Shown piece by piece: positions 49,622 through 57,072 of a stretch of 64,000 nucleotides of DNA. Numbering within the stretch: the first letter of the stretch is position 1; every line of letters begins with the position of its first letter. Source of the stretch: an uncultured Pseudomonadota bacterium (GTDB lineage Bacteria > Pseudomonadota > Alphaproteobacteria > Rs-D84); the NCBI GenBank assembly GCA_900320405.1, contig OOHM01000002.1, forward strand, positions 236,461 through 300,460, given 5' to 3'. The notes below the pieces were generated by a model that had not been told where the DNA came from, ran no database searches, and saw nothing but the letters and a program-made list of their open reading frames with translations. Position numbers and translations under genes: made by a program.

Positions 49622-50179
49622 ATGGCACGTTTTGATGATAAAAAATTACAGACAGATAATTTGGTAGATAAACTTGTTTCTGTCAATCGCGTTTCTAAAA
49701 CTGTGAAGGGCGGTAAAAATATGTCTTTCTCGGCTTTGGTCGTCGTTGGTGACAAGGCCGGCAAAGTCGGTTTTGGTAAAGGCAAGGCATTGGAAGTTCA
49801 ATCCGCTGTACAAAAGGCAACCAAGGCCGCCAAGGCAAAAATGATTCGCGTCCCGTTGAAAGAAGGCCGTACGCTGCATCACGATGTCGCGGTGAAATAT
49901 GGCGCCAGTAAGTTGGTTTTACGCAGTGCGGTTCCCGGTACCGGTATTATCGCGGGTGGTGCGCTTCGTGCGGTGTTCGATTGCCTGGGGGTACAAGATG
50001 TCGTTGTGAAATCCCAAGGTGCAAACAACCCGAACAATATGATTCGCGCGGTATTTTTGGCATTTTCGAAAATGAATTCACCGAAAACGGTCGCGGCGCG
50101 TCGTGGTAAAACGGTTGCAGAAATCATCGCCGGCCGTGATGGTAAGAAAGTCGAAGAATCAACAACGGAAGACAAATAA
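49622..50179 (+). CDS. rpsE: 30S ribosomal protein S5
   Basis: '[26 protein letters not shown]' S5. Confidence 0.95.
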
Positions 50180-50185
50180 TAAAAG

Positions 50186-50377
50186 GTGATTGTTATGGCA
50201 AAAAAAATAATTGTAAAACAAATCAAAAGCGTTATCGGTCGTCCGGAAACACAACGTCGCACTTTGGCCGCGTTAGGTCTGGGTCGTATTGGTAAAACCG
50301 CGGAATTGGATGATAATGCATCTGTTCGTGGTATGATTGCCAAGGTTTCCCATTTGGTTAACATTGTGGAAAAATAA
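50186..50377 (+). CDS. rpmD: 50S ribosomal protein L30
   Basis: '[23 protein letters not shown]' L30. Confidence 0.9.
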
Positions 50378-50379
50378 AA

Positions 50380-50709
50380 ATGGCAAATTCGAATAAAAAA
50401 GATTATGTTGCACGTTTGAATATGGCCGATGTGGTACATGAACATCGTGTTTTTGATGTTTTTGTTAAGGTTGCCAAAATGTATCCAGATTTGGCGCCGG
50501 CTCTGTTCAATAAATATGTCGATTTTATTCTGAATAACAACAAAAGTGTTCTGGGTTACGCATTGGATAAACAACAATCGGTCGCAGAACGCATCGCAAA
50601 CGAAAATATCGGTTATTTTATCGGAAATTGTGAAAAGTTTGACGAACGCAAGTTCTTGTTCCAAATTTATCCGACAACATATCATCCGGTATTGGGTAGA
50701 GAGTTTTAA
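50380..50709 (+). CDS. Hypothetical 109-aa protein inserted in the spc operon between rpmD and rplO
   Basis: ATG 2 nt after the rpmD stop. No r-protein homology. Followed by small hairpins (tgcgga...tccgca; aactatatagtt). Confidence 0.45.
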   Translation: MANSNKKDYVARLNMADVVHEHRVFDVFVKVAKMYPDLAPALFNKYVDFILNNNKSVLGYALDKQQSVAERIANENIGYFIGNCEKFDERKFLFQIYPTTYHPVLGREF

Positions 50710-50780
50710 TAAATAAACCGAGTGTGCGGATACTTGTCCGCATGCGCAAACGAACTATATAGTTCATAGGAGTAAAAGAA

Positions 50781-51239
50781 ATGAAATTGAATGCTTTGAT
50801 GGATAATTTGGGTGCACGCGCGGGTATTAAACGCGTTGGTCGTGGTATGGCGTCGGGTTATGGTAAAACCGCCGGTCGTGGTACCAAGGGTCAAAAGGCA
50901 CGTGCGGGTTCACGTAAACAGGCAACTTTCCAAGGTGGTCAGATGCCGATTTTGCGTCGTTTCCCGAAATACGGTTTTACAAATCCGTTTGCAAAACGTT
51001 ATGCGACAATCAATTTAGGCGATATTGAAAAATTTATCGCATCGGGCAAAATTGATGCCAAAAAAGAAATCAATTTGGATTCTTTGATGGATGCAAAAAT
51101 TTTGAATCGCGCAATGTCGGGGTTGAAAGTTTTGGCCAAAGGCGAAATCAAAACCGCGGTGAACATTGTTGCCGACAAATGGTCCAAGGCCGCAGAAGCC
51201 GCAATTGTCAAGGCCGGTGGCAGTATCAAAAACAAATAA
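50781..51239 (+). CDS. rplO: 50S ribosomal protein L15
   Basis: 'RVGRGMASGYGKTAGRGTKGQKAR' L15. Confidence 0.95.
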   Translation: MKLNALMDNLGARAGIKRVGRGMASGYGKTAGRGTKGQKARAGSRKQATFQGGQMPILRRFPKYGFTNPFAKRYATINLGDIEKFIASGKIDAKKEINLDSLMDAKILNRAMSGLKVLAKGEIKTAVNIVADKWSKAAEAAIVKAGGSIKNK

Positions 51240-52593: not shown

Positions 52594-52741
52594 GTACGGT
52601 TTGCGTGAAACAAGTGGTTTGACTTTTGCGATAATTTATATAGAATTATTCGACAAAGGTGAATGTTCGGTGGCGGGTGTCATCGGGCGAAATGGCGGGG
52701 CGGGGTCGTCCCAAGGTAAAAAATAAAAAGGAAAAGTAAAA

Positions 52742-53561: not shown

Positions 53562-53588
53562 AAAAATCCGCCAAACGGCGGATTTTTT

Positions 53589-53686
53589 CGTCATCCCGGT
53601 ATATTTATCTCGTCATCCCGGCGTAGGCCGGGATCTTTTTAGCCTTCGACGAGACTGAATGGGTCCCGACTTTCGTCGGGATGACG
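53589..53686. repeat. Palindromic repeat element family 1, second copy (plus a partial terminus at 53589-53599)
   Basis: 'cgtcatcccggcgtaggccgggatc...gacgagactgaatgggtcccgac...gtcgggatgacg' aligns with 2944-3059. Confidence 0.6.
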
Positions 53687-53724
53687 TTTTTTAGTAACCA
53701 TTAAATATTTTTGTCAAATAAAAC

Positions 53725-53752
53725 TTGACAACGAATTTTTGTGTCCTATAAT
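53725..53752 (+). promoter_or_regulatory. Strong sigma70-like promoter TTGACA-N16-TATAAT
   Basis: Drives the inserted gene at 53780. Confidence 0.5.
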
Positions 53753-53779
53753 ATTGACGAATAACCAAAAGGGACACAA

Positions 53780-54100
53780 ATGAAAAAAACAATTTTGACT
53801 TCTTTGTTTGCTGCGATTATCGCCGCGAATGCCAATGCATCTGATGGTGGTCTGTACGCAGAAACAGAAACATATACAAACCGCGTTCGTTACAATACGG
53901 TTGAATACACTGCACCGGTCGAACAACGCGTTGCCCCGGTGGCGACATGCAATTCTTGCGCGCAGCCGGTTCGCGTTAAAACCCATACCGAAGTAATTGA
54001 TCATTACCAGGTTTATCGTCCGGTCACAGTTTATGAACCGGCGGGTACATATGCGGAACGCCGTGTTGTTCGCAACACATGCAACCGTTGCAACTACTAA
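53780..54100 (+). CDS. Small secreted Cys-containing protein (106 aa)
   Basis: Signal MKKTILTSLFAAIIAANANA. CNSC...CNRC pairs. Followed by a terminator at 54131-54158. Confidence 0.55.
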   Translation: MKKTILTSLFAAIIAANANASDGGLYAETETYTNRVRYNTVEYTAPVEQRVAPVATCNSCAQPVRVKTHTEVIDHYQVYRPVTVYEPAGTYAERRVVRNTCNRCNY

Positions 54101-54130
54101 TTTAATTCAAGTTTGTGTAAGTAGTGTTCA

Positions 54131-54158
54131 TACGCGGGGCAAATGCCCCGCGTGTTTT
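54131..54158 (+). terminator. Rho-independent terminator ('acgcggggcaaatgccccgcgt' plus T-run)
   Basis: The same hairpin sequence recurs after rplQ at 58922-58950. Confidence 0.55.
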
Positions 54159-54230
54159 TATAAAATTTCCCTTTTATTTTTCCCTTTTATTTGTTTGTTT
54201 TTTATGTTAAAATTATGAGACATAAGAGAG

Positions 54231-56210
54231 ATGAAATTTTCATTGGGTATTTTGTGTGGTGTTTTGTGTGCCGCGTTTATTGCGCCGGCGGTGGCGAATG
54301 TTGCCACAACGGCGGGGTCTAATTTGACCGCATATCACGGTACGGGTTCAACGAACAACAATCAATGGAACACTTTGATGACCGGGCGTGGCGGAATGTC
54401 AGCGACCGCGGCGGATGCGAATTTTGGAAACTGTAATGCGGTGATTCTGCGGTGTGCGTCGCCAAAATGCAGTGGTGGCGGGTGTTATGATATGAATGTT
54501 GCGCGTCCGATTGTTGCGGGTTGTGTGAATTCGAACGCGTCGTGCAAGAAACATGGTGATGCGTTGATTGATTATATCACTGCCCAGATTGTGGCACAAT
54601 CAAACGCAAAGCAGCAAGAACAGGCGAACGCCGTCGCGTTGGCCCAGGCACAGGCCGAAGCCCAGGCCGCCGCATCTGCGGCCGCCGCCGCGCAAAGTAA
54701 TGCCCAAATGCAGCAAATGCAACAACAGATGCAGCAAATGCAGGAACAGATGGCGGAATCTATGTCCGCGATGCAGCAACAAATGGCGGCGCAAAGCGAA
54801 TCGCAAAACGCACAAATTCAATCTGCGTTGGACGCGCAACGCGAAAATATGGCGGCATATAATGCACCGGCAAATAATGGCGATACGGGTGCGGTGATTG
54901 CGGGACTGGAGGGTCTGTCGGTGGCGGAACAATTGGCGGCGAAAAACGGAATCAGTGCCGATATTTTGGTGCGCGAACAAATGGGTGGCAAAATTGAAAC
55001 CGCAATAGAAGACGCAATGACCGCGATGAAAGATTTAAAGGGTAAATTGGATGCGGTTTTGGAATACGCGGGTTGTGACCCGTCGGCAACGAACTGCACG
55101 GGGCCAAAGCGCGTGAAAAAATTCAAAGATTTGGCAAATGAATTCTTTGACCCGTATGAAAATGTTGTGGAAAATGTCTATGATGCGTTGATATTGGCAA
55201 TGACATTGGGTATAGATGTGAACGACGTTATTATGTTGTTGTCTGATTCATGTAATATGTGGGGTAAATACGTGTGTAATTCTTGTCAGTATAGCAATCC
55301 ATTGCCGGCGGGTTGTACATGCTTTGGTGAAGATGACAGAAGTAATTGTTATTATCGTGTTGAAACAGACAACGAAGGCAAGGTTTCCAAAAATCAAAAA
55401 AATTGCCGATTGGTTAGCATCTTAAATGAAAAAGATACGGTATGGCGCGAATGGATTGACGCGAACACCGGTATGACCGGTTCGACCCAGGTTGCATGTG
55501 CGTCTGATGTTGTTATGAATATACCAATGTTCCGCGGAATGAAGAAAAATGCAACAATGGATATTGATAACCTGCGCCGGTTGGTGAACCAAGATTCTTA
55601 TTCTTGCCGTGGAAAAATGGACAGTGGCAATTTTGTATTGACCAATCGTGATGCGATTGAAGATTGTGGTTTGAATATGTGCGCGGTAAATCCAAACGAA
55701 AATTCCGAGGCATATAAACTGCTGTACGATACTGTGCGCACCCGTAAATTACCCAAGGTTGACAAGACGGCAAAATCGTTGTGCTGGGAAACTTTCGATG
55801 ACGCCCCCCGCAGTGTTAAGAACATAGACCCGACGGTGGTTTCGATTTTGGATGCAGGCTGTGCTGTATTTAATTTCTCTCAGGAGTTGTGTGATAGCAG
55901 ACAAGACTGTATTTATGATTCCAATGCAAAAAAATGTGTTGCGAGTGCGGGATATAAAATAAGTGCTAAATCGATTTCCACTAGCGAAGCTATTGCAAAG
56001 TACGGTGTGGTAGATAAGTTAGAGGCACGAGATGTTGTTGTGGATAAGAATCTGTCTGCGGGTGATATGCCAGATATGTCGAAGTTTAGGAATTTTGCAG
56101 ATTGTTTAGCAAGTATGACGTTGTATTTTGCTGATATGAATGATGGGTATACGAATGCCAATGCGGGCAGTGAAGCGCAGGACTTTTGCAATCAATGGTA
56201 TAGTAGATGA
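54231..56210 (+). CDS. Large secreted Cys-rich protein with Q/A-rich coiled-coil segment (659 aa)
   Basis: Signal MKFSLGILCGVLCAAFIAPAVA. N-terminal C-x7-C-x4-C-x5-C module. 'QMQQMQQQMQQMQEQM' tract. About 35 Cys. Confidence 0.6.
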   Translation: MKFSLGILCGVLCAAFIAPAVANVATTAGSNLTAYHGTGSTNNNQWNTLMTGRGGMSATAADANFGNCNAVILRCASPKCSGGGCYDMNVARPIVAGCVNSNASCKKHGDALIDYITAQIVAQSNAKQQEQANAVALAQAQAEAQAAASAAAAAQSNAQMQQMQQQMQQMQEQMAESMSAMQQQMAAQSESQNAQIQSALDAQRENMAAYNAPANNGDTGAVIAGLEGLSVAEQLAAKNGISADILVREQMGGKIETAIEDAMTAMKDLKGKLDAVLEYAGCDPSATNCTGPKRVKKFKDLANEFFDPYENVVENVYDALILAMTLGIDVNDVIMLLSDSCNMWGKYVCNSCQYSNPLPAGCTCFGEDDRSNCYYRVETDNEGKVSKNQKNCRLVSILNEKDTVWREWIDANTGMTGSTQVACASDVVMNIPMFRGMKKNATMDIDNLRRLVNQDSYSCRGKMDSGNFVLTNRDAIEDCGLNMCAVNPNENSEAYKLLYDTVRTRKLPKVDKTAKSLCWETFDDAPRSVKNIDPTVVSILDAGCAVFNFSQELCDSRQDCIYDSNAKKCVASAGYKISAKSISTSEAIAKYGVVDKLEARDVVVDKNLSAGDMPDMSKFRNFADCLASMTLYFADMNDGYTNANAGSEAQDFCNQWYSR

Positions 56211-56944
56211 AACAAAAAATGAAAATTTTTAATGTTGTTTTTGGTGTGCTGATATGCCTGGCGCCGGTTGGTGCGCGTGCCGCCGGTGATTTTGAATGTG
56301 GTTATTTTAATCCGGCGTTTGGTCTGTGTTCAACTCATTCGCATAATATTGGTGCGATGGACGATAAAACAAATTTACCGGTGAATCCGACAAAGTCGGA
56401 AGAAACCGCACAAATGAATGATGTTATCGCGTTGAAGTCTACGGTTATTGCGCAACAATTAAAAGAACAATATGATGCGTTGAACGCCGTTATTAAACGT
56501 TTCAAAACCCAATTGGAAAAGGCCGTTTTGACCAGTAAGATAGAGGTCATCACCGGCAACACCGCATCCGGCAATTCTGGCGGTGGCGCATCTGCATCCA
56601 GTTCATATAACAACAATGGATTGGCCAATGCCGAAGATTGTGATAATGTTTTAGATATGGCGAATGTTTATGATTGTCTTAATCGTAATTTAACCAAGAT
56701 TTCCCAGGCGGTGGATAATGATTTATCTGGTGCACGTAAACAGTTGAAGAATGATATTAAGGTAATGGACGGTTACAAGGTTTGTGGTGATTCCACATCT
56801 GATTGTATTAGTGATGCAAGTTGCAAAAGTATAGATGGTAGTAAAAACAACATAAAAGAATGTGTCAAAGCGTTACAAAGAAGACTAAAGGTTGCAAAAA
56901 ACGATTTTGATAGAAAGAATGCCCAGGCGCGTTATGGCCGTTAG
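56207..56944 (+). CDS. Secreted Cys-containing coiled-coil protein (245 aa)
   Basis: Overlaps the previous stop (atga). Signal peptide. Gly/Ser tract. C-x4-C-x5-C motifs. Confidence 0.55.
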   Translation: MKQKMKIFNVVFGVLICLAPVGARAAGDFECGYFNPAFGLCSTHSHNIGAMDDKTNLPVNPTKSEETAQMNDVIALKSTVIAQQLKEQYDALNAVIKRFKTQLEKAVLTSKIEVITGNTASGNSGGGASASSSYNNNGLANAEDCDNVLDMANVYDCLNRNLTKISQAVDNDLSGARKQLKNDIKVMDGYKVCGDSTSDCISDASCKSIDGSKNNIKECVKALQRRLKVAKNDFDRKNAQARYGR

Positions 56945-56973
56945 AAAACCGCTGCTTAAAATTACACTATTTC

Positions 56974-57001
56974 TTGACTTTTCCTAAAAAACGCTATAAA
57001 A
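56974..57001 (+). promoter_or_regulatory. Putative promoter for rpoA (TTGACT-N15/16-TATAAA)
   Basis: rpoA is separated from rpsK by the 3.5-kb insertion and appears to carry its own promoter-like hexamers. Confidence 0.4.
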
Positions 57002-57072
57002 TGCGCGGGCACGTAAGGGTTTATGTGCGGCCGATTGGCGAAAATGATAAACTAAGCTAAAAGGAAATTTAA

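Follow-up and report, generated by a model that had tools for sequence, protein, structure and literature searches.

The spc operon of bacteria carries several non-ribosomal passengers, namely secY, adk, map, and infA. All four are old, essential, and widely conserved, and their functions are known. Few gene arrays in bacteria are as conserved as the ribosomal protein operons, and genomes below 1 Mb tend to shed dispensable genes. Two further kinds of small gene are relevant here. Accessory genes of phages, including those of the moron type, are small and patchily distributed, and classical morons reside in prophages with their own promoter and terminator. Lineage-restricted ribosomal proteins, such as Thx/bTHX, bS22, and bL25, are basic and ribosome-bound, and belong to the non-ubiquitous ribosomal proteins (PMC3353972). 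At the RNA level, ribosomal protein operons are known for leader RNAs, for example, the S8 site in the E. coli spc operon. To our knowledge, no leader of rplO (L15) has been described, and our literature search returned neither a gene nor a leader at the position between rpmD and rplO.

Here, we analyzed the rpmD-rplO junction in a DNA stretch of 64,000 nucleotides from an uncultured alphaproteobacterium of the Rs-D84 lineage (the whole stretch is referred to as the window). An extra gene, named X here, is located at this junction. With a probability of about 0.6, we regard X as an accessory gene of phage ancestry, carried as a passenger cistron in the spc operon of part of Candidatus Enterousia/Rs-D84. 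Similar to secY, adk, map, and infA, X is a non-ribosomal gene inside the spc operon and probably co-transcribed with it, but it is lineage-confined, apparently dispensable, fast-evolving, and phage-related. It resembles the accessory genes of phages in being small, all-alpha, patchy, low in GC, and free of conserved phage neighbors. Unlike the classical morons, it sits in a chromosomal housekeeping operon in apparent coupling to rpmD, and neither an X-specific promoter nor an X-specific terminator was found at the locus. With the lineage-restricted ribosomal proteins it shares the small size, the narrow phyletic range, and the place beside ribosomal genes that some of them have. However, X is near-neutral and absent from sister genomes whose L15 is 87-91% identical. 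Non-ribosomal passengers of the spc operon are nothing new in themselves, and a dispensable, fast-evolving passenger from a phage family is an unusual variant of them. A phage-related gene at this place is notable because ribosomal operons are so highly conserved and small genomes lose what they can dispense with.

Re-reading the layout agreed with an earlier note on this DNA, which had placed a 109-aa ORF 2 nt past the stop codon of the L30 gene (Table 1). The GTG at 50186 that is listed as the start of rpmD is probably unused, because the ATG at 50195 agrees with the 60-aa homologues; homologous genes of 59-60 aa in related loci carry the Pfam Ribosomal_L30 domain. The spacer that the note described before rplO exists and holds both of its palindromes, although it measures 71 nt and not 70. 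The minus strand also contains an ORF of 268 aa (49879..50685), which we dismissed because it is antisense to rpsE, rpmD, and X, a spurious reading-frame artefact opposite highly constrained genes.

Table 1. Coordinates of the features at the rpmD-rplO junction, and loci of the X subtypes and of the cultured phage member.
Feature	Position or locus	Strand	Remarks
rpmD (ribosomal protein uL30, 60 aa)	50195..50377	+	ATG at 50195; TAA stop at 50375-50377
Coupling junction TAAAAATG	50375..50382	+	rpmD stop, 2 nt (AA), X start
X (109 aa)	50380..50709	+	ATG at 50380; predicted all-alpha; NIGYFIGNC at residues 76-84, YHPVLGR at residues 101-107
rplO leader (71 nt)	50710..50780	+	kept in relatives with and without X
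Leader hairpin 1	50722..50745	+	10-bp stem, ACUU loop; includes tgcgga/tccgca
Sigma-70-like match TTGTCC-18-TATAGT	50734..50763	+	9/12, background level; overlaps both hairpins
Leader hairpin 2	50752..50765	+	A/U-rich 5-bp stem; includes aactatatagtt
rplO Shine-Dalgarno AGGAG	50768..50772	+	2 nt past hairpin 2
rplO (uL15, 152 aa)	50781..51239	+	downstream order: secY, rpsM, rpsK
Bacterial X, subtype B109/B107	window, L001-L010		
Bacterial X, subtype B94	L012, L013, L021 (P0018, P0085, P0016)		both family motifs lost
Bacterial X, subtype B99	L011, L020		rpmD absent
X family member of Xanthomonas phage JGB6	OQ436456.1 77691..78143 = L030 4833..5285		in a block of small hypothetical genes

Among 5.8 billion proteins searched, 12 clusters were related to X at 65-99% identity, all from metagenomes or MAGs and without a protein name. 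Homologues with 63-99% identity occupy the rpmD-X-rplO slot in independent assemblies from ENA, Logan, NCBI, and JGI, 3 loci being contributed by the JGI metagenome scan. The order rpmD-X-rplO was seen in every examined homologue (L001-L007, L008-L010, and L019), and the S10-spc cluster is otherwise collinear. The earlier note had left it to related genomes whether the reading frame is conserved. The frame is kept at all related loci having X, which include more than 12 independent Ca. Enterousia/Rs-D84 metagenome and MAG assemblies, and the ORF is intact in all carriers. Searching the window with family members by tblastn matched X alone, revealing no paralogue.

Pairwise Nei-Gojobori comparison of the window with three diverged loci gave dN/dS values of 0.08-0.28 for X, at a dS of 0.75 to >3, and values of the same order for rpmD (0.11-0.25). 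Between the same loci, X is 63-74% identical and S5, L15, SecY, S13, and S11 are 86-99% identical, so that X has changed more in amino-acid sequence than any neighboring gene. Among 13 sequences, 49 of the 109 positions are invariant. Using the ribosomal and elongation-factor genes of the window as the reference set, the codon adaptation index (CAI) of X is 0.71, within the range of the ribosomal genes (0.59-0.77) and above 13 of the 14 other ORFs tested. Judged by these patterns of substitution and codon use, X is a real protein-coding gene under purifying selection.

The distance from the upstream stop codon to the start of X is 2-11 nt in all carriers, the stop being that of rpmD or, in L011, that of rpsE. 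Shine-Dalgarno-like AGGA or AAGGA motifs precede X in several carriers, and no more than a weak GGA is present 11-12 nt upstream in the window. X fits exactly between the rpmD stop and the pre-existing leader of rplO. The simplest reading is that X is co-transcribed with the spc operon and translated by termination-reinitiation coupling to rpmD, with which its ribosomal-like codon usage agrees. The earlier description of a tightly coupled extra gene is well founded in this respect, since the 2-nt junction positions X for co-transcription and for coupled translation with rpmD. The gene order and the codon adaptation also make its further proposal plausible, according to which X and the ribosomal proteins are made stoichiometrically.

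The matches of X in genome collections are MAGs of Candidatus Enterousia sp. and of 'uncultured proteobacterium RUG...' from the rumen. Enterousia belongs to the uncultured alphaproteobacterial order Rs-D84, found in the gut of farm animals, with genomes of ~0.75-1.0 Mb that lack the TCA cycle and the respiratory chain and show no accumulation of pseudogenes (PMC12306168). L15 is represented by at least 120 clusters with ≥85% identity, far more than were obtained for X. From these, we inspected three loci on long contigs (L022, L023, and L024) at the rpmD-rplO slot, and X was absent there without a remnant. The L15 proteins of these loci are 87-91% identical to that of the window, and rpmD is followed by a conserved spacer of 74-82 nt and then by rplO. 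The earlier statement that rpmD and rplO normally abut is thus wrong for this lineage. In a neighbor-joining tree of S5, L15, and SecY (778 positions), carriers and X-negative genomes are intermingled, and L024 is sister to the carriers L007, L009, and L010 with a bootstrap of 1.0. Neither direct repeats nor remnants that could represent insertion scars were detected at X-positive or X-negative junctions. The consistent presence across close relatives that is expected of a ribosomal protein is not seen for X. Because close relatives do without it, X is by its distribution a dispensable, optional passenger rather than a part of the ribosome.

The bacterial copies fall into three subtypes that are mutually 28-37% identical, in hosts whose SecY proteins are 85-97% identical. 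The extreme case is L012, whose SecY is 97% identical to that of the window and whose X is only ~30% identical, compared with 95% and 67%, respectively, for L007. The B94 proteins are encoded by intact ORFs of 90-94 aa and are 48-60% identical to one another; NIGY is replaced by NIWV, NIET, or NIST, and HPxFG is gone. This pattern suggests a functional shift rather than simple decay. In the B99 lineage, the gene order is rpsE-X-rplO without rpmD on two independent contigs (L011 3434..4833 and L020 168..1051), and L023, the X-negative relative nearest to this lineage, still has rpmD. The GC content of X is 6-9 points below that of its operon in all bacterial loci (36.7% for the gene in the window), a foreign-like composition.

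The protein encoded in the window has a mass of ~12.6 kDa, a pI of 7.8, and a net charge of +0.8. The pI values of nine neighboring ribosomal proteins are 9.6-11.4 and those of the bacterial X family members 5.9-9.9, and X does not have the strongly basic, RNA-binding composition of ribosomal proteins. That X has no similarity to ribosomal proteins, as first noted from the ORF, was borne out by Pfam and NCBIfam, in which no ribosomal family matched; the Pfam scan covered 103 X family members, and X itself had no match in NCBIfam. At threshold, X and its distant relatives gave zero matches to Pfam, NCBIfam, PHROGs, and PADLOC. Solved structures in the PDB, searched with the single sequence and with the profile, gave nothing below E = 0.02, and eight representative members had no meaningful match to anti-phage defence or anti-defence components in PADLOC-DB. 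Where X is annotated, it is as 'hypothetical protein' only. The X family is new, having no curated model, PHROG, or structural relative.

Two sub-threshold matches were considered and rejected. The first, to Cas12a REC1 (PF18501), scored 20.5 bits against a cut-off of 37.4 and covered 40 residues of a 250-position model; it occurs in just 4 of the 103 family members, Cas12a scored 16.8 bits in PADLOC, and the match is treated as compositional. The second, to PoNi_C (PF08929, the C-terminal domain of PoNe immunity proteins), had a best E of 0.0039 and 18.4 bits against a cut-off of 25, and was found in 9 of the 103 members, all of the phage type. Both were rejected because they are below threshold and limited to subsets of the family.

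Structure prediction, suggested at the outset as a way to examine the ORF, produced a confident all-helical model. AlphaFold2 modeled the X protein of the window with a pLDDT of 85.3 from 13 sequences and the phage member P0061, also all-helical, with a pLDDT of 94.7 from 103 sequences. The models of the family have 5-7 helices and describe an all-alpha bundle of ~90-130 aa. The conserved Asn, Gly, Tyr, His, and Pro residues are located at the end of helix 3 and just past helix 4 of the model, a placement more in keeping with a binding surface than with an active site. X revealed neither a motif of catalytic type nor the fold of an enzyme.

Two profile searches, one exhaustive and one word-indexed, extended the family beyond 100 clusters, with lengths of 88-130 aa. 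Members share two motifs, N-[IFL]-G-Y-x-x-G-[YN]-[YC] and H-P-x-[FL]-G, and the X of the window carries both, the second as HPVLG (102-106). Membership is supported by E-values of 1e-10 to 1e-56 (hmmsearch, phmmer). Profiles of the bacterial and phage subfamilies align by HHalign with a probability of 99.5% and E = 3.8e-22, by which the two subfamilies are homologous. The majority of the members and of the diversity is found on phage contigs of 86-410 kb. Phage-type proteins have an added C-terminal helix, DKPFxVSPEEAFKKG. Bacterial-type proteins have an N-terminal extension and a YPNQ...LFNKYV signature, stop just past HPxxGR without the PEEAF helix, and are always at the spc slot of Enterousia-like genomes. 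By these features, the bacterial copies are a derived subgroup of the family.

Phage-type X was found on contigs of 164-277 kb, surrounded by small unknown genes and by genes for T5orf172, Phage_30_3, RtcB, NAD-ligase, NUDIX, and radical-SAM proteins, as well as on IMG/VR viral contigs of 86, 178, and 410 kb; the viral scan with the broad family alignment gave 1 locus. The deepest branches are in phage or mobile-element blocks with Phage_L5_gp82, SNF2 helicase, MazG-like, and LPD38 genes. The phage loci span 25-61% GC and therefore represent many hosts. Comparison of three phage loci revealed no gene common to their neighborhoods besides the X homologue, so no clue from guilt by association is available. 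One member comes from a cultured phage, Xanthomonas phage JGB6 (WEU67432.1, 150 aa, 'hypothetical protein'), and has the motifs NIGYLAGY...HPVFGR...PE..F.KTG. It is the sole experimentally tractable relative found and gives experimental access to a family that is widespread in large phages. Searching INPHARED by tblastn with P0061 and P0100 gave no match. A fusion protein was also observed: P0110 (169 aa, on a 747-bp ENA contig) has a phage-type X domain at its C-terminus, and its N-terminal ~100 aa have a precomputed match to Pfam PF21189, a partner domain that might hint at function.

Taken with its patchy distribution, this family points to X as an accessory, non-structural protein. This is the reading we favor, based on the fact that X is optional, fast-diversifying, foreign in composition, non-basic, and homologous to phage proteins. 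The bacterial subtypes share derived features relative to the phage forms, and for this reason we infer one acquisition from phage, which would have been followed by diversification and by repeated loss or exchange. The direction from phage to bacterium is suggested by the breadth of the phage diversity and the derived features of the bacterial forms, in a tree that is unrooted. After acquisition, X may have gone through episodic fast evolution and several losses, or old alleles may have been exchanged by recombination, for which the near-identical ribosomal flanks could serve as arms. Transcribed with the operon and coupled to rpmD in translation, X would be expressed at a high and constitutive level. 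The protein would act by binding a partner rather than by catalysis, and it may take part in conflicts between phage and host or protect the translation machinery, as an immunity, exclusion, or anti-defence type of protein. Such a role appears most likely because phages of many hosts keep the same X core. What makes X notable is that it is under selection and codon-adapted to the ribosomal level, yet gained or lost among close relatives in three very different versions. This pattern suggests that a housekeeping operon can be used as an expression platform for an accessory protein of the conflict or translation-related type.

Among the rival explanations, the one that survives best is that X is a ribosome-associated protein specific to this lineage and produced in parallel with the ribosomal proteins. 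It could be a new accessory component of the ribosome, help in ribosome assembly or hibernation, or accompany or replace uL30, and its phage homologues would serve to manipulate the ribosomes of the host. The position inside the spc operon at 2-11 nt past rpmD and the codon adaptation on par with ribosomal genes would suit such a protein. RtcB is encoded near a phage homologue, and huge phages are known to carry translation genes. Purifying selection also keeps X in genomes of only ~0.75-1.0 Mb (PMC12306168). However, the gene is missing from close relatives, evolves much faster than the neighboring ribosomal proteins into three types with ~30% identity, and, in the B94 type, no longer has the two family motifs; the charge of the protein is near-neutral and variable, with a pI of 5.9-9.9 in the bacterial members. 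The two independent B99 contigs (L011 and L020), in which X directly follows rpsE and rpmD is absent, would also agree with a link to uL30. However, uL30 is among the bacterial ribosomal proteins most often lost, with several independent losses that leave 145 of 995 genomes without it (PMC3353972). The absence of rpmD beside X therefore needs no compensation, and the co-occurrence in B99 is weak evidence. We consider a ribosome-associated function unlikely on balance, and the implication of the earlier note that X is made for the ribosome finds no support: absence in close relatives, near-neutral charge, and relatives that are mostly phage genes.

A more specific form of this explanation is that X is a new ribosome-binding protein common to reduced-genome gut alphaproteobacteria and jumbo phages. 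The bacterial protein would be made in step with large-subunit proteins and could replace uL30, and the phage homologue, with its added C-terminal helix, would reprogram or protect host ribosomes. A stand-in for uL30 is conceivable because one lineage keeps X and has lost rpmD. As a whole, the proposal is more doubtful still than the general one.

Returning to X as a selected accessory gene of phage ancestry, we also weighed the view that it is a functionless hitchhiker, that is, a phage fragment in a permissive spot that is slowly decaying. Patchy presence, low GC, rapid divergence, and the motif loss of B94 would be expected of such a fragment. The B109/B107 type, however, shows dN/dS values of 0.08-0.28 where dS is saturating, in 13 sequences 49 of its 109 positions are invariant, the ORFs are intact in all carriers with adapted codon usage, and the reduced genomes of this group are without pseudogene accumulation (PMC12306168). 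Slow decay thus seems a poor account of X, and we give it little credence.

The 71 nt between X and rplO contain a structured element of their own. Its components are ACCGAGU, hairpin 1 (9-10 bp), GCGAAACA, hairpin 2 (5-7 bp, A/U-rich), and AUAGGAG, and this series was found upstream of rplO at all loci, whether X is present or not (L001-L013 and L022-L024). The conservation of the element is well above that of synonymous sites in the adjoining genes, and within the window it is unique. All 8 of the 8 distinct variants of hairpin 1 are fully paired. Between the common form and that of L011/L023, both sides have changed at five stem positions, and each variant includes 1-3 G-U wobbles, which would be A-C mismatches if read on the opposite strand. 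RNAalifold recovered both hairpins, with double-sided changes in 7 of the 15 pairs. The folding energy of the sense strand is -19.2 kcal/mol (z = -2.5), and that of the antisense strand is -14.9. The compensatory and wobble changes therefore support a conserved sense-strand RNA structure of the rplO leader. By its occurrence, the element belongs to rplO and not to X. The supposition that the spacer and palindromes result from the extra gene is accordingly not upheld, the same structured spacer preceding rplO in relatives that lack X.

The proposal that the two palindromes are a terminator or attenuator of X itself, or insertion scars, draws on their position immediately 3' of the X stop codon. 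Against it, the same element directly follows rpmD in the X-negative loci L022-L024, which refutes the proposal; in addition, no U-tract is present, and the compensatory and wobble changes mark the RNA structure of an rplO leader; we see hardly any room for it. Hairpin 1 was also examined as an intrinsic terminator. Its stem is followed by GCGCAAACGAAC instead of a U-tract, which rules this reading out, and the terminator scan left hairpin 1 unreported.

The element shares with ribosomal-protein leader RNAs that it is short, conserved, structured, placed before the Shine-Dalgarno sequence, and marked by compensatory changes. It differs from the Rfam families of such leaders in matching none of them: no match at gathering score was found in the whole window, and nothing relevant at E ≤10 around the locus. 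A sigma-70 geometry fits the same sequence, with TTGAAT-16-TATAAT in the leader of L011 and TTGAAT-17-TATAAA in that of L023, and the TTG and TATA parts that overlap the hairpins are conserved. Three roles are compatible with the element, namely that of a regulatory leader, of a site for RNA processing or stability, and of an internal promoter. With each of them, the two-hairpin leader is a candidate for a new cis-regulatory element of the rplO-secY part of the operon.

Last, an enlarged intergenic region between rpmD and rplO with a spurious ORF in it, or an assembly artefact, would explain the weak Shine-Dalgarno motif in the window and annotations that never go beyond 'hypothetical protein', but frame, length, and motifs are kept across many independent assemblies, substitutions are mostly at synonymous sites, structure prediction is confident, and there are more than 100 homologous clusters; frame conservation, dN/dS, and codon adaptation together therefore refute this scenario, to which we assign practically no weight.

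Other departures from the usual gene order were observed in the window. secY is followed directly by rpsM (52594..52741), and unlike in many bacteria, adk, infA, and rpmJ do not end the spc operon. The cluster is broken between rpsK and rpoA (53562..57072), where rpsD is absent and three ORFs of 106, 659, and 245 aa without Pfam match are located. These ORFs lie downstream of terminator-like hairpins at 53615 and 53663 and of a perfect TTGACA-16-TATAAT promoter at 53725..53752. Related loci have different large unknown ORFs (482-636 aa) at this position, so that the ribosomal super-operon has a second site of variable insertion here. The 106-aa ORF (53780..54100) has a signal-peptide-like N-terminus and two CxxC pairs, and is provided with its own consensus promoter and a strong terminator at 54130..54155. 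Its CAI of 0.76 is the highest among the non-ribosomal ORFs tested, and the gene is conserved at the same length of 106 aa in L001, L003, and L004. It probably encodes a highly expressed, secreted small protein.
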